A stretch of DNA of 64,000 nucleotides from an uncultured Alphaproteobacteria bacterium. GTDB taxonomy: Bacteria; Pseudomonadota; Alphaproteobacteria; RF32; CAG-239. The stretch lies in contig CALXTU010000001.1 in the NCBI GenBank assembly GCA_944391495.1, positions 59,981 to 123,980 of the forward strand, given 5' to 3'. Each line of letters starts with the position of its first letter. Position 1 is the first letter of the stretch. A model generated the notes under the pieces. The model had not been told where the DNA came from. It did not search any database and saw only the letters and a program-made list of their open reading frames with translations. The translations under genes were made by a program, and so were the position numbers. Shown here one piece after another: positions 7,858 through 38,235 of the stretch.

Positions 7858-8016
7858 GTCATGTTGAGCGGGAGCGAAACATCTTAGAGATTCTTCGGGA
7901 CTTGCGTCCCTCAGAATGACGACTAAAATGTCATGTTGAGGAGCAAGGCGCCGAAACATCTTAGAGATTCTTCGCTAACGCTCAGAATGACAGGGAAGTG
8001 ACGCTCGGAATGACGG
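7858..8016. repeat. Family-A palindromic repeat, two tandem units plus a partial third
   Basis: Units 7858-7920 and 7930-7991 share gtcatgttgag...gaaacatcttagagattcttcg...tcagaatgac. Unit 1 carries the GC hairpin gggac-ttgc-gtccc. Related copies at 10382, 10777, 21887 and 37956. Confidence 0.85.
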
Positions 8017-9497: not shown

Positions 9498-10349
9498 ATG
9501 ACAACGGCATTAATTCTTGAGGGCGGCGCCAAACGCGGCATTTATACGGCCGGCGTGCTTGATGTCCTGCTGGAAAATGGTTTGACGGCGGACGCGGTAT
9601 TCGGTGTCTCAGCCGGAGCAATTCACGGCTGTTCTTTTGTGGCCGGGCAACAGGGGCGCTCTATCCGCTATAACCTCAAATACGGTAATGATCCCCGTTT
9701 TATGAGCCTTAAAAGCTGGCTCAAAACCGGCAATGTGGTTGATGTTGAGTTTTGTTATCACGAGCTGCCGGATAAGCTTGATCCGTTTGATCATGAGGCC
9801 TTTGAAAACGCAGCGGCAAAATTTTATACCGTTTGTTCCAATGTTGAAACCGGACAGGCCGAATATATCCTTTGTCCAAGCCTCAGAGGCGATAAAATCA
9901 ATTATCTGCGTGCCTCGGCCTCGTTGCCGTTTTTATCCAAAATCGTTGAAACCGGCGGCAAAAAACTGCTGGACGGCGGTATTTGTGACAGTATTCCGCT
10001 TAAAGCGGCGCAAAATATGGATTACGGCCGCAATCTCGTTATTTTGACGCGGCCGGAGGGATACCGTAAAAAACCGGCGTACAACGGCTGGCTGGCGCGT
10101 CTGGTTTACCGGAAATATCCGGCTTTTGCCGCTGCGATTGCCCGCCGTCATATTATGTATAATCAAGAGCTTGATTATATCGCCGAACAGGAAAAGCTTG
10201 GCCGGACACTGGTTTTGCGGCCGTCGCGGCTGATTAAAATCGGCAAGATGGAAGCTGATTTGGGAATCGTGCGGCAGATGTATGAACTCGGGCGGCAGGA
10301 TGCCCTTGCCCGGCTGGCCGAGATTAAAGACTTTTTGCAAAAAGATTAG
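9498..10349 (+). CDS. Patatin-like phospholipase
   Basis: Oxyanion GGAKRG motif and GxSxG (GVSAGA) nucleophile elbow typical of the patatin domain. AAGGAG RBS. Confidence 0.8.
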   Translation: MTTALILEGGAKRGIYTAGVLDVLLENGLTADAVFGVSAGAIHGCSFVAGQQGRSIRYNLKYGNDPRFMSLKSWLKTGNVVDVEFCYHELPDKLDPFDHEAFENAAAKFYTVCSNVETGQAEYILCPSLRGDKINYLRASASLPFLSKIVETGGKKLLDGGICDSIPLKAAQNMDYGRNLVILTRPEGYRKKPAYNGWLARLVYRKYPAFAAAIARRHIMYNQELDYIAEQEKLGRTLVLRPSRLIKIGKMEADLGIVRQMYELGRQDALARLAEIKDFLQKD

Positions 10350-10381
10350 AAATAAATGGTTTTCCGTTATTTTGTGTGTCG

Positions 10382-10424
10382 GGCTTAGATTCTTCGGGGC
10401 TATGCCCCTCAGAATGACAGAAAA
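10382..10424. repeat. 43-bp direct repeat (family-A hairpin unit), upstream copy flanking the GIY-YIG gene
   Basis: ggcttagattcttcggggctatgcccctcagaatgacagaaaa. Near-identical copy at 10777-10818. Contains the gggg-ctat-cccc hairpin. A further degenerate unit (gtcatcctgagc...) follows to ~10480. Confidence 0.85.
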
Positions 10425-10494
10425 CGGTATCAGGAATAACGTAATCATATAGTCATCCTGAGCTTTAGCGAAGGATCTAAAGAGATAAAATGCC

Positions 10495-10782
10495 ATGAAA
10501 AATATGTATGTTTATATTATGTCAAATAAACCAAATGGTACTTTATATATAGGTGTTACCAATAATCTTATCCGGCGTGTTTATGAGCATAAAAATTCTT
10601 TAGTTCCCGGTTTTACTTCAAAATACAAATTATATAGTCTTGTCTATTTTGAATGTTTTGATGATGAAGAAACAGCTATTAAAAGAGAAAAAACTTTAAA
10701 AGGGTGGCTACGAAAGAAAAAAATAGAATTAATTATTCGTACTAATCCATCGTGGAGTGATTTATCCGGTTCACTGGTTTAG
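10495..10782 (+). CDS. GIY-YIG nuclease family protein (UPF0213-like), 95 aa
   Basis: YVYIMSN...GTLYIGVTNNLIRRVYEHK is the GIY-YIG signature. Strongly AT-rich relative to its surroundings. The stop codon lies inside the downstream direct repeat. Confidence 0.8.
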   Translation: MKNMYVYIMSNKPNGTLYIGVTNNLIRRVYEHKNSLVPGFTSKYKLYSLVYFECFDDEETAIKREKTLKGWLRKKKIELIIRTNPSWSDLSGSLV

Positions 10783-10818
10783 ATTCTTCGGGGCTATGCC
10801 CCTCAGAATGACAGAAAA
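10777..10818. repeat. Direct repeat, downstream copy flanking the GIY-YIG gene
   Basis: ggtttagattcttcggggctatgcccctcagaatgacagaaaa, one mismatch versus 10382-10424. Followed by a partial unit ctcagaatgac at 10828-10838. Confidence 0.85.
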
Positions 10819-10851
10819 AAAGAATACTCAGAATGACGATAAGAAAAAATA

Positions 10852-10910
10852 GCAGGTTCGAGAACTTGTCGCTGCCGACAATTAAAAAAACAGCCCTCTT
10901 CGAGGACTGT
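10852..10910. repeat. 59-bp direct repeat carrying two hairpins (ttgtcg-ctgc-cgacaa and an A-tract/T-tract terminator-like stem), copy 1
   Basis: gcaggttcgagaacttgtcgctgccgacaattaaaaaaacagccctcttcgaggactgt. Second copy at 11030-11089 with three substitutions. Confidence 0.8.
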
Positions 10911-11029
10911 ACCCGTTGTAAGGGCTTACGCCCGGCAGGACTGACCTCGCTTAAGCTCGGCCGCTGCGCCGTCGCTGTTGCGGCGATACCCCCGTATCGC
11001 CTGCGCCGGCTGGTCAAACCTGCTCTCTC

Positions 11030-11095
11030 GCAGGTTCGAGAACTTGTCGCTGCTGACAATTAAAAAAACAGCCCTCTCTGAGGACTGTTTTTTTA
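11030..11095. repeat. 59-bp direct repeat copy 2 including an intrinsic-terminator hairpin (acagccctc-tc-tgaggactgt + T7)
   Basis: Identical architecture to 10852-10910. The T-run at 11089-11095 abuts the 3' end of tRNA-Val on the opposite strand, so it can terminate in both directions. Confidence 0.7.
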
Positions 11096-11097
11096 AT

Positions 11098-11174
11098 TGG
11101 TGGGAGTGGCAGGACTCGAACCTGCGACCTCTACGATGTCAACGTAACGCTCTAACCACCTGAGCTACACACCC
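11098..11174 (-). tRNA. tRNA-Val (anticodon GAC)
   Basis: The reverse complement folds as a cloverleaf: acceptor GGGTGTG/CACTCCC (one T-T mismatch), D-arm GCTC...GAGC, anticodon stem TTACG/CGTAG with loop TTGACAT, T-arm GCAGG-TTCGAGT-CCTGC, encoded CCA. Confidence 0.85.
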
Positions 11175-11373
11175 GTATTATGAAAATCTTAATAATTCTG
11201 TCGCAGGCGAACCTGCTCTTGCTCCTAAGCTTCGGCGCTTTACGCCTTCGCTAACTCGCTGCGGTCACTCGGTTTGTAACGTTTATTTCGCGGCGCTGAC
11301 GCTTGCTTATAAACTAACAAACTCTCGCCTTTCGTTGAAAACCGCTCCACCGGAGCTGTTTTCCGCCTCAAGC

Positions 11374-11494
11374 CTCTACGATGTCAACGTAACGCGACTG
11401 GCCACCTGAGCTACACACCCGTATTATGAAAATCTTAATAATTCTGTCGCAGGCGAACCTGCTCTTGCTCCTAAGCTCCGGCGTTTTACGCCTT
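11374..11494 (-). pseudogene. Duplicated tRNA-Val 5' half (anticodon stem to 5' end, D-arm altered) plus ~75 bp of upstream/promoter sequence
   Basis: About 121 bp, near-identical to 11129-11249: ctctacgatgtcaacgtaacgc...cctgagctacacacccgtattatgaaaatcttaataattctgtcgcaggcgaacctgctcttgctcctaagct. The D-loop tctaa is replaced by gactgg. Confidence 0.8.
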
Positions 11495-11665
11495 CGACGT
11501 CAAACCTAATGTTTACATCAGTTTAACGCGGAACAAGGTATTCAATAATATATCTTTGTCTTAAATGCAAGTCTTTTTTTGCGCTATTAGCGAATATTTA
11601 ATTTTTGCCGCTTTATAATAAAAAATACTCTTTTCTGCGGTTGTGTTATTAAGGAGCAAATCTGC

Positions 11666-12550
11666 ATGGACGCTAAAATCCTGGATTTTAAAGTTGATTA
11701 CGACAAGCTGAAAATCTTTGACGAATTTAATGTCAAAGAACCTAAATTTCCGATGGTATTGTCATCACCGCACGCCGGGCGGCTGTTTCCGCAGGAATTT
11801 TTAGCCAACAGCGTGTTAACGGAACATGAGCTCCGAATCTCGGAAGACTGCTTTGTCACCGAACTGGTCCGGCCGGCGTCCGATGAGGGAATCCCTCTCC
11901 TCAGCCTTAATCTGCCCCGGACTTTTGTCGACGTCAACCGCGACAAAATCGAACTTGACGATACAATGTTTTTCAATGCCCCGAAAACAACCGACATCAA
12001 CTCACGCCGCTGTCGGGTCGGACTTGGCGTTTTGCATCGTGTCGTTTACCAGAACAAAAATATTTATGACGGTCTGCTGAATTATGATGAGGCCAAAGAA
12101 CGCCTCAAAAATGTTTATGATCCTTATCACAAACGCCTGAAACAGCTTGTGGACAAGTGCGTGCGCAAATTCGGCTTTTGTCTGCTGCTGGACTGCCATT
12201 CAATGCCATCCATCATCTGCAATATCATGAACGAAACCAAACCGCTGGATTTTTGCGTTTGTAATCTGTTTGACGAGAGCTGCCCGCACGAAATGTCGCA
12301 AACATTGTTCGACGGCATGGAAAAAGGCGGATTCCGCGGTGAATTTAACCGTCCGTATGCCGGCGCTTTTATAACTTTTAACTATTGTCAGCCCCGCAAA
12401 AATATCTACACCTTGCAAATTGAGGTTAACCGGGGACTTTATATGGACGAGCAATCTTATCAAAAAAAGCCAAATTTTCAGGATATTAGCCGTCATATCA
12501 GTCAGGCTGTGATCGAATTAGGTCATTTTTTGCTGGATTTTAAAAATTAA
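11666..12550 (+). CDS. N-formylglutamate amidohydrolase (FGase) family protein
   Basis: SSPHAG, DVNRD and LLLDCHSMPS motifs, the conserved metal-binding residues of the FGase family. Confidence 0.7.
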   Translation: MDAKILDFKVDYDKLKIFDEFNVKEPKFPMVLSSPHAGRLFPQEFLANSVLTEHELRISEDCFVTELVRPASDEGIPLLSLNLPRTFVDVNRDKIELDDTMFFNAPKTTDINSRRCRVGLGVLHRVVYQNKNIYDGLLNYDEAKERLKNVYDPYHKRLKQLVDKCVRKFGFCLLLDCHSMPSIICNIMNETKPLDFCVCNLFDESCPHEMSQTLFDGMEKGGFRGEFNRPYAGAFITFNYCQPRKNIYTLQIEVNRGLYMDEQSYQKKPNFQDISRHISQAVIELGHFLLDFKN

Positions 12551-21785: not shown

Positions 21786-21886
21786 CCGAATTAAAAATTT
21801 TCTCACTTTTTGTCGCGTTGTATAAAAATTTGAAGCCCCCTTATCATCGGGAGGAATGCCTCCCGATGAGCGATGACGATACCTTG

Positions 21887-21948
21887 TCATGTTGAGCGAA
21901 AGCGAAACATCTGAGAGATTCTTCGGGACTATCGTCCCTCAGAATGAC
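21887..21948. repeat. Family-A palindromic repeat unit (plus partial unit to ~21975)
   Basis: gtcatgttgagcgaaagcgaaacatctgagagattcttcggg-actat-cgtccctcagaatgac. Preceded by a second hairpin catcgggagg-aatg-cctcccgatg (21848-21871). Confidence 0.85.
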
Positions 21949-24390: not shown

Positions 24391-27300
24391 ATGACTAATA
24401 CATCTAACTGGCCAAGAGAAGTCATTGATATTGAACAATTAAAAACCGTTTTCGACGATAACAATATTAATATAACTGATGAATTGGACATTGTTTTGCG
24501 GCAAAGGGCTCATGTCGATTTACCTTACGGCAAACGCTACCAGCATGTAAGATTTGCCACAATTCTGGGCGCTGTTTATGTTCCTGACAGTATTTATAAA
24601 GAAAAAGAACGCGAAAAACACTTAAAAAAGCTCCGCCGCTATTATGACCAAAATGCGACAAAATCTTATATTAAACTGGAAACGGCCGAATTTTACTGTA
24701 ATTTTCTGGATCAAATCAAAGACAGCATTGAACAGCGGCACCCCGGAGTCAAATTACCCTTGATATCTATTGATAAGCCTTTGGAAAAGCAAGAACATTT
24801 CCATGGATCTGGCTCAAAAAAAGAGAAAAAGACCAAAACCCTTAATGATAAAATCGTTAAAATAGACCGTTATCAGGTTATTAATCCTTCGTGTTTACAA
24901 AAACTATCAGCTGATGAACTGTCCAAGCTGCTTGACGAGGTTTTTCAGAAGCGTAGTGCAGATCTCACCTCTACTGCCGATAAAGATAAACTGCTTAATC
25001 TTATATCCAATATTAAATATGCCTTTGCTTATGCACAAAATGACGGCAAAAGTTTAGAACAAAATTCCCATTTAAATCAGGCGCGACGGCTATATAACTA
25101 CCGAGCCGGACAAAACCTCACTCCGCAAACCCAAAAGCTTTATGTTACTTATATGGAAGCGGTTGAGGAAAGACTGAGAAACGAGCACCCTGATTATCAG
25201 GTTGTTTATGATGAAATTCCGTTGCTTTATGAAAACAACCAACCAGAACCCAGACCAGGACCAGGACCAGGACCAGGACCAGGACCAGGACCAGGACCGG
25301 GACCGGAACCGGGGCCTGAGCCTAAGCCGAGACCGGGGCCTGAGCCGAATAAAAAAACTCTGGACGGCTATACCTCGGACGAATGGACCCAGCTGTTGGA
25401 TTCGGCGGTAAAAACGGCTGTTGTTGAAGAAGAAAATCTGACTGAAGGAATTGCCGTTACTTCACTTAAAGAAGTTTTGGGCAAAAAATTTCCCGACAAT
25501 TTTGATACAATGTCTTTGGACGAGATAGAAAGCGAGGTTTTGGCCAAACTCAATCCGGCACAAATAGCACAGTTTAATATTAAAGTTACCGAAAAGGCAC
25601 AAACACTGGCTGAATGCCTGCCGCCGCACTTTTTGACCTTTACGGCCAAACAAACCGATGCGGCTCTGGGCAAAAACGGTATTGACGATGACCTCAAACA
25701 GACGCTAACCGGGCAGCAGGAAATTTTGCGCAGTGCCATAAAAGATATTATTACGCAATATCATACCGGTGTTGTTATTGATGCCGATAATGCGGCGGGT
25801 GTTTATGACGGTCTGAAAGAGATGCTCGCCTATGCCAAGGCTCATAATCTCGGTGAAGCGGAAAAAATCAGCGGTATTTTGGCCAAACTGGAAGAAAGCA
25901 TTAAAGAATATGATGCCAACAACGGTTTGGACAAAGTTACCGAGAACAATCTCGAGGCTGTCAACAAAGCTTATGACACGACGAAAACAGATGTTGACGG
26001 TATCCTTGCAAAAAGCGACTGGGAAACGCAGTTTACAAATATTCTGGATGATGATACTAAAGAAATATTTAAGCAAATCACTTTTCCGGAAACAACAGAC
26101 GAAAACGGAAACAAAACTCCGGCTGAAGAGAACAAAAAGCTTTTTGTCGAATTGATTTTGAACAAAGCCGCCCAACAGACCGCCTGCTCATCGCATGATA
26201 AATCCGGCAATGATTTAAAAAGTGTTTTAAACGAACAAATCAAAGAAACTGCCGTTGCCGAAATCTTTACATTAATGGCTGCGGAAGAGGCTGTTAAAAT
26301 TAACGGAGACCCTAATCTCCGCGCTGAATTGACGGTATCGCCCGGCGATAATATTGCGGCAAAGAAACAAAAACTCGCGGCTTATATATCAAACAAGCCG
26401 GCGGCCACCGCTGTCAGCAAAGATGCTCTTGCCGGTTATTTTGCCGCTGCGGTCAATCGTCAGTCGCTATTTGCCAACCGCCTGGCAACCAAGCTGAATA
26501 ACCGCGGTGCCGGCGTGCTCAAAAAAATGTGGCAACCTTTCCAAAAGCTTGATAAAACCTGTATCAACAGATTTGGCCTGCTTTATACCGTTCCTCGCGG
26601 CATTTTCAAAAATTCACTGCAAAATCTGCCTTGGAGCGCATTAAACGCAGTTGCCAGAGTTGCCGCTTTTTCACAAGTCGGCACCCCGTGGGGAATGGCC
26701 TGTGTTGCCGGATATGCCGCTTATAGCCTGGGAACAACGGCAATCCGCATGATCAGACAATATAAAAAGATCAAAAAACAAGATAAGAGTATGACTCCCG
26801 GAAAATATCTTAAAAACAACTGGTCCGCCATGGCTTTGTCGGTGGTCGGAACGGCGGTATCGGTTATTCCGGGGCTGAGTACCGGCAGCGAATTTTTTAA
26901 AGGCGGACTGGAATGGATGAGAAATACCGGCATGCTTGAACGAACCGGTTTTCTGGGAATGACAAAAGCCAGTGCCGGCCTTATCGGTGCCGGGATGTTG
27001 GATTCGACCATCCGGGGCGCGAAAGCTCATCATGCAGCCGGTAAAGGATGGTTTAAATCTATTGGGGCAGCATTAGGATCTTCGGTTCTTTCCAGTGCGG
27101 CAGGTATTGGTGTGGGCATGGGCTGTGCGACCGGTGCCAACGAATTATTAAATTCCGGCATGAATTTGTTTGGAGATGTCAAAACACAAAATATTCCTAC
27201 CGAATCTTATGAACCTGACAATCCGGATCATTCCAAAGAACAAATTTCTCCCGGAGAATATGATCCTGCTAATCCGAGCCATAGCAAAGAGGCTATACCG

Positions 27301-35676: not shown

Positions 35677-36425
35677 TACTTTTCTCCGTCACGCCGCCAA
35701 TCGCCGGCAACCGCCTGCCATACGGCCAGCCCTGCGGCCGCAGCCGTTTCCGCCCGCAGAATACGCGGTCCGAGGCTGATGTTTTTTACCCATGGATGCC
35801 GGTTCAGCGCCGCAGCCTCATCATCACTGAAACCGCCTTCGGGGCCCACCAATAATGCCGCCGGACGACCGGCAGCCTCGCCAAACGCCGTTAAAGCCTC
35901 TGTTCCGGTACGCCGCTCATCCATAAAAAACAACAAACGACCGGGCTCCCATGACTGCAGCAAACTACCCAAATCAACCGGCTGCGCGATTTCCGGAACA
36001 CTTAAACGACCGCATTGCTCCGCCGCTTCTACCGCCTGAGCGGCAAAACGTTCGGTTTTTACCTTATCAGCATTAGTCCGCGCGGTCAACACCGGAATTA
36101 TTTTAACAACACCGAGTTCTACCGCTTTTTCAATAACAAAATCCGTTTTGTCCTTTTTCAGCGGCGCAAACAGCAACCATAAATTATTGTCTCTTTCGGG
36201 AAGACGCTTCCGGCTACCTACCTCAACAAGCGTTTTCTTTTTGTCGGCCGCGGCAATGCGGCAGTCAAACTCACCGTCGACGGGGTTAAAACAGCTTATA
36301 ACACTGCCGGTCCGGCAACGCATAACATTGCACAGATAATGAGACGTTTTGTCCGGAAGCTCTATCAAGCTTCCGGGCTCAAGCTTTTGTTTCACATATA
36401 ATCTGATTGCGCGGTTGTCCTTCAT
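35676..36425 (-). CDS. rsmE: 16S rRNA (uracil1498-N3)-methyltransferase RsmE
   Basis: C-terminal LLVGPEGGFSDDE...LGPRILRAETA motif of the RsmE SPOUT family. Confidence 0.8.
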   Translation of the reverse strand: MKDNRAIRLYVKQKLEPGSLIELPDKTSHYLCNVMRCRTGSVISCFNPVDGEFDCRIAAADKKKTLVEVGSRKRLPERDNNLWLLFAPLKKDKTDFVIEKAVELGVVKIIPVLTARTNADKVKTERFAAQAVEAAEQCGRLSVPEIAQPVDLGSLLQSWEPGRLLFFMDERRTGTEALTAFGEAAGRPAALLVGPEGGFSDDEAAALNRHPWVKNISLGPRILRAETAAAAGLAVWQAVAGDWRRDGEK

Positions 36426-37955: not shown

Positions 37956-38016
37956 GTCATTCTGAGGGACGAACGTCCCGAAGAATCTCTTAGATGTTTC
38001 GCTCCGCTCAACATGA
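37956..38016. repeat. Family-A palindromic repeat unit, inverted orientation (plus partial unit to ~38057)
   Basis: gtcattctgaggg-acgaa-cgtcccgaagaatctcttagatgtttcgctccgctcaacatgac is the reverse complement of the 7858 and 21887 units. Confidence 0.85.
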
Positions 38017-38235
38017 CAAGATGGATGCTTCGTCGCTATGCTCCTCAATATGACGAGGAAACGTCTCTGTTCTGCGGAAAATATCATCTGCGATATCATT
38101 TTTTGCTTGAAAAATAAATATTTGTATGTATAAATGTCTTCACTTAGCCTGTCGGGGTGCGCCGGCCGGTTTCGTATGTGGTTCGCACAAGTCCGCCGAT
38201 ATTTTTCGGGCCTGGCATTTTTGAAATAATATTTT

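Follow-up and report, generated by a model that had tools for sequence, protein, structure and literature searches.

A probable Ssn-family GIY-YIG nuclease gene and its hairpin repeats form a discrete, repeat-bounded unit in an uncultured alphaproteobacterium

The DNA analysed here, a 64-kb stretch of contig CALXTU010000001.1 from an uncultured alphaproteobacterium (hereafter the window), contains a small ssn-like gene on the plus strand (10495..10782) that is predicted to encode a single-domain GIY-YIG nuclease of 95 amino acids (aa), and that is bracketed by direct copies of a hairpin-forming repeat. Sequence comparison indicates with good probability that this open reading frame (ORF) encodes a site-specific single-stranded DNA (ssDNA) endonuclease of the Ssn family, that the repeats, called family A when they were first noticed, are its cognate motifs (SRMs), and that the unit of gene and repeats was lost from a conspecific strain by recombination between SRMs. 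The system is of an already known kind, and the belonging together of nuclease and repeat has already been published (Chenal et al., Nat Commun 2025, PMC11893778). Our additions are modest, namely a natural pair of filled and empty alleles and a subtype of hairpin that is not caught by the search pattern as published.

As described there, SsnA of Neisseria meningitidis (NMV_0044) is a 94-aa single-domain GIY-YIG protein (CDD cd10448) that binds the hairpin repeat NTS (CGTCATTCCCGCGMAVGCGGGAATCYRG) solely as ssDNA and on one strand only, cuts a few nucleotides (nt) upstream of the repeat, and requires Y6, Y17 and E64. The three bases 5' of the palindrome control cleavage, and the C on its 3' side controls binding. 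Homologues of three other species each cut beside their own repeat, and the characterised Ssn homologues are described as having no activity on double-stranded DNA (dsDNA). A related motif (SRM) was found near 71% of the homologues, and on both sides in 42%. The authors point out that the NTS-ssnA-NTS arrangement resembles an insertion sequence, raising its mobility and domestication as a hypothesis only (PMC11893778). Literature searches turned up nothing later on how Ssn proteins are built or whether their genes move.

Results

The gene and its product

The original prediction described a 95-aa GIY-YIG gene of the UPF0213 type. The gene itself is confirmed by the ORF call, the Pfam search and the alignment: PF01541 (Pfam GIY-YIG) matches residues 4-76 with an E-value of 6.5e-17, and the same Pfam search found no second domain in the 95-aa protein. 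Its conserved catalytic-motif residues are Y7, Y18, R28, H32 and E65. Among them Y7, Y18 and E65 are invariant in an alignment of 29 sequences, and they are offset by one residue from the essential Y6, Y17 and E64 of SsnA (PMC11893778). The UPF0213 label is too loose: the sole match by sequence in the PDB, 1zg2 (UPF0213 protein BH0048), is weak (E 1e-4, 25.8 bits) and points to a shared superfamily, but less clearly to a shared family.

More than 3300 homologues of the protein were found at E < 1e-5, including proteins 60-70% identical in Ignavibacteria, Alphaproteobacteria, Kiritimatiellia and others, and tblastn revealed no paralogue within the 64-kb window. Compared with its nearest relatives at other loci, the gene shows a ratio of nonsynonymous to synonymous divergence (dN/dS) of about 0.08 with dS > 1, implying that it is functional and under purifying selection. 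The TAG stop codon (10780-10782) lies inside the downstream repeat (GGTTTAGATTC; 10776-10818), so that the repeat indeed supplies the stop, as had been proposed. A promoter and terminator scan of 10250-11250 gave nothing beyond shuffle expectation for the ssn gene; the single terminator-like match in that interval is a copy of the tRNA-Val terminator at 10890-10910 on the minus strand.

Hairpin repeats at the locus

The near-identical direct repeats that had been reported around the gene exist (10382-10424 and 10776-10818, 43 nt, 42 of 43 identical), with the second copy starting one base to the left of its earlier placement. A 36-nt core of theirs is present in the window in exactly two copies, and none of 100 shuffles contains it. 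The upstream copy is a reverse SRM hairpin, with its core at 10388-10418 and the minus-strand core sequence TGTCATTCTGAGGGGCATAGCCCCGAAGAATCTAAGCC. As ssDNA it folds with an outer and an inner stem of 5 bp each, separated by a 2x2 internal loop and capped by a loop of 3 nt, and both copies of the direct repeat fold as expected at -7.3 kcal/mol.

A spacer (10425-10451), which is 84 nt longer in the conspecific contigs L004 and L008, separates the upstream copy from a forward SRM hairpin on the plus strand (10452-10477, GTCATCCTGAGCTTTAGCGAAGGATC), located 17 nt before the ATG and forming the left inverted end of an SRM-ssn-SRM unit. The right inverted end is the downstream copy of the direct repeat (minus strand, core 10782-10812), which holds the stop codon. 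Inverted-repeat arms at 10469-10481 and 10778-10790, 92% complementary, pair the forward SRM with this downstream SRM. Beside the full downstream copy stands a head-only half SRM on the minus strand (10827-10838, CGTCATTCTGAG). The order at the locus is therefore reverse (10388-10418), forward (10452-10477), ORF, reverse (10782-10812) and half (10827-10838), and the bracketing direct repeats are the downstream member of a forward-to-reverse pair and an extra upstream copy in the same orientation.

The repeat family in the window

The direct repeats belong to a family, as originally predicted, with 11 full hairpin copies in the window. Read on the GTCAT strand, an SRM consists of GTC, a 5-bp outer stem (AT-NN-T / A-N'N'-AT), GA opposite GA, and an inner part composed of a GC stem of variable sequence and length with a loop of 3-4 nt, followed by ATC and a short tail (ATCTnnnA). 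A search with the head GTCATNN[TC]GA gave 19 matches in the window, comprising the 11 complete elements, two head-only copies (8002-8014 and 10827-10838), one degenerate copy (38023-38054) and five unrelated sequences. The complementary partner arm is present in all 11 complete elements, all of which also carry GTC directly 5' and C directly 3' of the palindrome. Three versions of the outer stem occur (GT/AC, TC/GA and CC/GG), and the inner stems vary by compensatory changes.

A shuffle-calibrated structural detector (GTC, a 5-nt arm, 3-40 nt, the arm's reverse complement, and C, with at least 7 pairs) yielded 11 full copies in the 64-kb window vs 2.0 in shuffles. No Rfam family covers the hairpins, either with gathering thresholds over the whole window or in E-value mode over 10300-11700; these searches gave only the two tRNAs and chance matches. 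No terminator-like T-run follows the hairpins.

Apart from the copies around the gene, the SRMs are arranged in gene-less forward-to-reverse pairs of about 60-65 nt (7858-7920, 7930-7991, 21886-21948 and 37956-38017). The first two form a cluster upstream of murI (7858-8014) with no gene between them, in which 7858-7883 (plus strand) is followed by 7889-7920 (minus), 7930-7960 (plus) by 7966-7991 (minus), and a half copy closes the array (8002-8014, minus). The third pair (21886-21911, plus; 21917-21948, minus) is located downstream of tRNA-Arg, and the whole pair folds with z = -3.8. The fourth (37956-37987, plus; 37993-38017, minus) is accompanied by the degenerate copy at 38023-38054 on the minus strand.

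Half SRMs, composed of GTCAT and the left stem arm, recur every ~20 nt beside full hairpins in many unrelated genomes. We observed this stutter in the window (8002-8014 and 10827-10838), in the L004/L008 spacer, and in loci L024, L025, L042, L070, L079, L093 and L096. We found no mention of it in the portions of the Ssn paper that we consulted (PMC11893778).

Association of the gene with hairpins across homologues

The comparison covers 80 homologous loci (L011-L090), the top 80 matches, fetched from reference genomes. They come from most bacterial phyla and span the candidate phyla radiation (CPR/Patescibacteria), Chloroflexota, Planctomycetota, Bacteroidota, Cyanobacteria, Legionella, Francisella, Helicobacter and Bradyrhizobium. 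The usual flank is a GTCAT-stem-loop-stem-ATC hairpin 5-60 nt before the start codon, with its reverse complement at or just past the stop codon, while the stem sequence varies from genome to genome. At least one hairpin lies within 150 nt of the gene in 68 of the 80 loci. The nearest upstream hairpin within that distance is a forward SRM in 48, and the layout with a forward hairpin upstream and a reverse one downstream, which is also that of the window locus, occurs in 37. Near the gene there are 6.07 hairpins per kb, vs 0.19 per kb beyond 500 nt, a 32-fold difference. The proposed tie between the nuclease and the repeat family is thus supported, and homologues of the protein bind and cut such hairpins as ssDNA in the experiments described in PMC11893778.

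The exact published NTS core (GTCATTCCCGCGMAVGCGGGAATCY) is present in the expected orientation at 12 of the 80 loci, whose proteins are on average ~58% identical to the window protein. The subtype with the GA/GA internal loop flanks 13 of the 80, in several phyla. Homologues with the same TGAR...GAA subtype are slightly closer to the window protein than the others (58.9% vs 56.4% identity; Mann-Whitney p = 0.003 among the top 80 matches), a difference too weak to carry a claim of co-variation between protein and hairpin.

Direct repeats of at least 22 nt flank the gene in 34 of 77 homologous loci. At two of these 34, L071 and L073 (around 3001), the direct repeats are 204 and 225 nt long, flank the ssn gene and include the ORF start; the cassette or its 5' part is tandemly duplicated in these Flavivirga and Desulfobacterales genomes.

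These data bear on a different account, by which the protein would be a housekeeping one of the UPF0213/YhbQ type (CDD cd10456) that lies in a region rich in repetitive extragenic palindromic (REP)-like or terminator hairpins, with gene and repeats unrelated. The sole solved-structure match is to UPF0213 protein BH0048, and the intergenic region is also a hotspot of indels unrelated to SRMs. That match is weak, however (E 1e-4, 25.8 bits), and the hairpins have neither a terminator-like T-run nor an Rfam match. Moreover, the 32-fold enrichment of GTC...ATC hairpins beside homologues in 80 genomes of many phyla, mostly in a fixed orientation, contradicts this account. We know of no report of hairpin repeats flanking UPF0213 proteins. 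Unrelatedness of gene and repeats thus seems hardly credible to us.

Base composition

The gene had been described as much more AT-rich than its neighbours, which the calculation bears out: its GC content is 0.285, compared with 0.478 in the whole window and 0.514 in the three genes upstream, and its GC content at third codon positions (GC3) is 0.188 vs ~0.53 in murI, the patatin gene and the FGase gene. The same tendency is found in all 80 homologous loci, where the ssn gene is lower in GC than its flanks (mean difference -0.10) and follows the GC content of the host (r = 0.92). The window gene lies 2.2 residual standard deviations under this trend of gene on host GC. Relatives 82-84% identical and the gene at L099 have GC3 values of 0.27-0.32 vs 0.45-0.59 in neighbouring genes, despite dS > 1. 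Since low GC occurs in 80 of 80 loci and in copies with dS > 1 alike, it is not evidence of a recent arrival, and we rejected it as a sign of recent transfer. Low GC is a persistent trait of the ssn family.

Filled, longer and empty alleles

The original prediction suggested a comparison of the orthologous locus for presence or absence of the cassette, and this comparison identified one conspecific contig, L109 (metagenome ERZ24773509), that lacks the cassette and keeps one repeat. Wherever the context is visible in cassette-bearing contigs (from metagenomes such as ERZ24773506, ERZ24773511 and ERZ16268126) it is constant: murI and a histidine phosphatase gene precede the patatin gene, and the GIY-YIG gene, tRNA-Val and the FGase gene follow it in this order. 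In L109, the patatin gene is followed by ...cgggCTTAGATTCTTCGGGGCTATGCCCCTCAGAATGACTGAAAAAAAGAATACTCAGAATGACGATAAGG..., tRNA-Val and the FGase gene, and both the ORF and the forward hairpin are absent between the patatin gene and tRNA-Val. The single retained repeat has the left flank and the variable base of the upstream copy, and the FGase protein is identical to that of the window. Since L109 has one repeat and no ORF, the 394-bp unit, which can be placed at 10425-10818 or just as well at 10382-10775, is a discrete indel with the repeats as its bounds.

A longer allele is found in L004 and L008. The 84 extra nt follow the upstream repeat, and the first 28 of them are the same as the sequence following the downstream repeat, which extends the direct repeat to ~66 nt in this form. 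The half SRM at 10827-10838 is included in this longer repeat, as well as in the single copy of L109. The window form seems to have arisen secondarily, through deletion between two AATGACAG motifs.

The direction of the change between filled and empty alleles can be approached through the distances between strains, which differ by 28-61 single-nucleotide polymorphisms (SNPs) over 1737 nt of the patatin and FGase genes. L109 differs from the cassette-bearing strains by 28-57 SNPs in these 1737 nt, with L004 as the nearest (28) and the window at 34, and cassette-bearing alleles occur in every lineage sampled. Because L109 lies near cassette-bearing strains and the cassette is present in all lineages, one precise loss is more parsimonious than several identical gains. 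The most parsimonious view of the empty allele is therefore that it arose by precise loss and does not represent the pre-insertion state, a picture that recombination between strains could blur. The loss itself most likely arose by recombination between the two repeat copies.

A polymorphism of this kind at a defined site might also be expected of a free-standing homing endonuclease of the Seg or I-TevI kind, which would cut both strands of the empty SRM site in duplex DNA and be copied in by double-strand-break repair. The protein does belong to the GIY-YIG superfamily, and it matches TIGR01453, a group I intron endonuclease model, at E 5.5e-5, but this match (23.3 bits) is far under the cut-off of 56.05 and is confined to residues 6-36. 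Characterised GIY-YIG homing enzymes are modular, with an N-terminal GIY-YIG domain and a C-terminal DNA-binding domain, whereas the window protein has 95 aa and no DNA-binding domain. Furthermore, homing gives no target duplication of 43-66 nt, and the cassette-bearing allele appears to be ancestral. Together with the lack of dsDNA activity described for the characterised Ssn homologues (PMC11893778), these points make homing very improbable.

Related genes and SRMs at other loci

Genes 84% and 82% identical to the window gene were found at unrelated loci that do not overlap the window, the former beside an autotransporter gene (L091) and the latter beside a TrbL gene (L093 and L094). Nucleotide similarity to the window extends only from ATG to stop, and the flanks hold further SRMs. 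Since the exact protein was found at one locus only, in at least 20 contigs, and its nearest relatives have dS > 1, there is no pointer to recent transposition.

At the position that corresponds to the window locus, a species whose patatin protein is 85% identical (L096) has a gene-less SRM pair. In a species with an 81% identical patatin protein (L099), the position is occupied by a different ssn gene on the other strand, of the 60-70% identical class, with another type of hairpin (GATTCTCGGGACAAGCCCGAGAATGAC). In both L096 (3501-6885) and L099 (3501-7852), murI has been turned round with respect to the patatin and FGase genes, in L099 together with the histidine phosphatase gene, and SRM arrays lie at the inversion junctions. 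In the window, homology with conspecific strains breaks inside the SRM cluster at 7858-8014, on the far side of which different strains have RloB, PilS/bundlin or Fic genes. The broken homology resembles the NTS clusters that border variable genes in Neisseria.

Neighbouring sequences

The intergenic region around tRNA-Val (11098-11174, minus strand) contains two further indels among conspecific contigs, which are GC-rich and unrelated to SRMs. One is a segment of 178 nt (10852-11029), bounded by direct repeats of 59 nt (10852-10910 / 11030-11088) through which the tRNA terminator is present twice. The other is a segment of 246 nt (~11199-11444), bounded by direct repeats of 95 nt (11156-11250 / 11402-11496) that take in the 5' part of tRNA-Val. 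A segment of ~200 nt upstream of tRNA-Val (11200-11420 in the window, 5532-5864 in L096, 6925-7261 in L099) holds a duplicated 5' half of tRNA-Val (~11371-11420). It is 89-92% conserved in related species with patatin proteins only 81-85% identical, and it has no Rfam match. Contig L105, from another strain, carries a phage-type integrase gene on the tRNA-Val side of the FGase gene, ~1.5 kb upstream of it and separated from it by two small ORFs. Because of this integrase gene, the ~200-nt segments may be remnants of phage attachment (att) sites.

Elsewhere in the window, a tandem repeat of 12 nt (ACCAGGACCAGG...) occupies 25242-25319. It is probably coding and, if translated, would give a short-period, collagen-like peptide of low complexity.

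Discussion

Likeness to known systems

The window locus shares with the Ssn/SRM system of PMC11893778 a single-domain GIY-YIG protein of ~94-95 aa with Tyr, Tyr and Glu at equivalent positions, oriented hairpins on either side of the gene with GTC and ATC as their frame, and repeats that are multi-copy and grouped in intergenic clusters; homologues ~58% identical are moreover flanked by the canonical NTS core. It differs in the conserved 2x2 GA/GA loop of its hairpins (GTCAT-NN-TGAG...CGAA-N'N'-ATC) and in the conspecific empty site, a kind of evidence that the paper does not contain.

Other systems resemble the locus more distantly. Bacterial interspersed mosaic elements (REP/BIME) with their RAYT proteins, which are IS200/IS605-like Y1 enzymes, likewise consist of extragenic hairpins in pairs and clusters around a single-copy gene, with more repeats than genes, and with a gene product that recognises the repeats as folded ssDNA, as the window protein presumably does by analogy with its homologues. 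The window protein, however, is a hydrolytic nuclease of the GIY-YIG type and not an HUH/Y1 enzyme with a covalent intermediate. The neisserial dRS3/RS arrays also contain hairpins with short intervening units that border strain-variable regions, like the cluster at 7858-8014, but they differ in repeat subtype and host lineage. Integron cassettes share a small promoterless ORF followed by an imperfect hairpin, which in the case of attC is functional as folded ssDNA, and the loss of a unit leaves one site, as would be expected if a circle with one site were excised. The window unit has neither integrase, attI nor an array of different cassettes, so that this analogy is one of form only. UPF0213/YhbQ proteins, finally, are likewise stand-alone GIY-YIG domains of ~100 aa and differ in that their sequence similarity is weak.

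Proposed action of the nuclease

The proposed action of the window protein follows that of its characterised homologues. Single-stranded DNA would arise in replication, or in uptake by transformation or conjugation, and the GTCAT strand would fold into the hairpin. By analogy, the protein would bind the hairpin together with the flanking GTC and C, and would nick this strand alone, a few nt 5' of GTCAT, leaving duplex DNA and RNA uncut. The same activity on the window SRMs is what the characterised homologues lead us to expect, and the conserved GA/GA, read as TC/TC on the other strand, would mark the GTCAT strand as the recognised one. The two SRMs of the same orientation bracket the 394-bp unit, which consists of spacer, forward SRM, ORF and reverse SRM; recombination between them would remove the unit precisely and leave one SRM. 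That nicking by Ssn promotes this loss is speculative, and so are a reverse reaction, that is, integration at a resident SRM, and an origin of the gene-less pairs and half-SRM stutters in such a reaction. The suggestion that the nuclease spreads the repeats, made in the original prediction, is a hypothesis that was already raised in PMC11893778.

Several observations weigh against the assignment to the Ssn family with cognate SRMs and loss by recombination between them. The published degenerate SRM pattern, HGTCWYN(0-2)YYVSBRHN(0-5)WNVSBRGN(0-2)RNCYNB as given in PMC11893778, matches no hairpin in the window, where it has one unrelated match (35687-35714), and it matches 23 of the 80 homologous loci and misses 57. 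The forward SRM at 10452-10477 folds only weakly by itself (-2.8 kcal/mol, z = -0.4). The exact protein was found on at least 20 metagenome contigs, at one locus only and with both repeats in all, which gives no sign of ongoing copying. In addition, ordinary homologous recombination, with no role of the nuclease, can explain the empty allele. With regard to the first point, the window hairpins are missed because of their TGAG...CGAA internal loop, and a pattern that misses 57 of 80 homologous loci is a narrow search tool and not a family definition. In our reading, its failure shows how far the search pattern reaches and does not place the window locus outside the Ssn family.

Mobility of the unit

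The original prediction regarded the gene as a likely mobile cassette bracketed by repeats. The part of this claim that stands is that it forms a discrete unit that can be excised, as in L109, and that related genes exist at other loci. Insertion was not observed, no young copies were found, and the empty allele looks derived. Mobility of the SRM-ssn-SRM unit is plausible.

A stronger version would make the unit an autonomous, currently active element of the insertion sequence (IS) kind, in which the GIY-YIG protein acts as a transposase on SRM ends through ssDNA intermediates, as in IS200/IS605 and REP/RAYT, the gene-less pairs are derivatives of it, comparable to miniature transposable elements with inverted repeats (MITE), and the 43-nt repeats are what an insertion beside a resident SRM has left behind. 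Terminal inverted repeats do surround the coding region, formed by the forward and reverse SRMs with their 92% complementary arms, and the same ends occur on the gene-less pairs (7858-7991, 21886-21948 and 37956-38017). The limits of presence and absence in L109 coincide exactly with the repeats. Genes 82-84% identical stand beside autotransporter or TrbL genes with homology confined to the ORF and SRMs, proteins of 60-70% identity occur across phyla, and the cassette is tandemly duplicated at L071 and L073.

Near-identical copies at different sites, which an insertion sequence should have, were not found, however: there is one in the window, and a single locus in 20 of the 20 contigs read. 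Likewise, the nearest relatives have dS > 1 and hence are no young copies, the strain distances favour loss over gain for the empty allele, and there is no classical short target-site duplication, as the flanking repeat is 43-66 nt long and is itself an SRM. To our knowledge, GIY-YIG nucleases are hydrolytic, and none in the superfamily is known for strand transfer.

The boundaries of the repeats add little to this question. The long repeat in L004 ends directly after GACGATAA, ~3 nt 5' of CGTCAT and within 1 nt of the inferred cut of N. meningitidis SsnA, an offset that is our reading of the oligonucleotide lengths in PMC11893778. As general evidence, repeat boundaries as cut sites were rejected, since at the 34 other loci they mostly track the conserved SRM consensus and are silent on the cut site. 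Because boundaries elsewhere are uninformative, we give little weight to the match in L004. Taken with the points above, we consider an active IS-like element unlikely.

A further possibility is that the unit is truly mobile, by a mechanism that would define a new class of elements. An ssDNA nickase of the hydrolytic GIY-YIG type, together with repair or replication by the host, would excise the unit in a single-stranded form or as a circle with one hairpin, which would then re-integrate at a resident hairpin, and the gene-less pairs and half-SRM stutters would be by-products. We put this forward tentatively, as an idea that is rather doubtful at present. The assignment to the Ssn family with loss of the unit by SRM recombination is the reading that we prefer.

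Significance

The Ssn/SRM system was described in 2025, and PMC11893778 leaves open the role of the enzyme outside Neisseria and whether the NTS-ssn-NTS arrangement is mobile at present or was so in the past. The locus described here is a well-delimited natural case in an uncultured bacterium, with bounds formed by hairpins of the same orientation and a conspecific loss of exactly one unit. Its nearest relatives are at unrelated loci, and in a related species the same spot is occupied by another ssn gene, with hairpins of another type. SRM clusters also sit at the borders of strain-variable regions and at inversion junctions. Since the published pattern misses the widespread GA/GA subtype, the share of Ssn genes with cognate repeats has probably been underestimated. 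If the unit were truly a mobile element of a new class, the filled and empty alleles (the window and L109), together with the 66-nt form of L004, would be the first natural footprint of excision or integration in this family.

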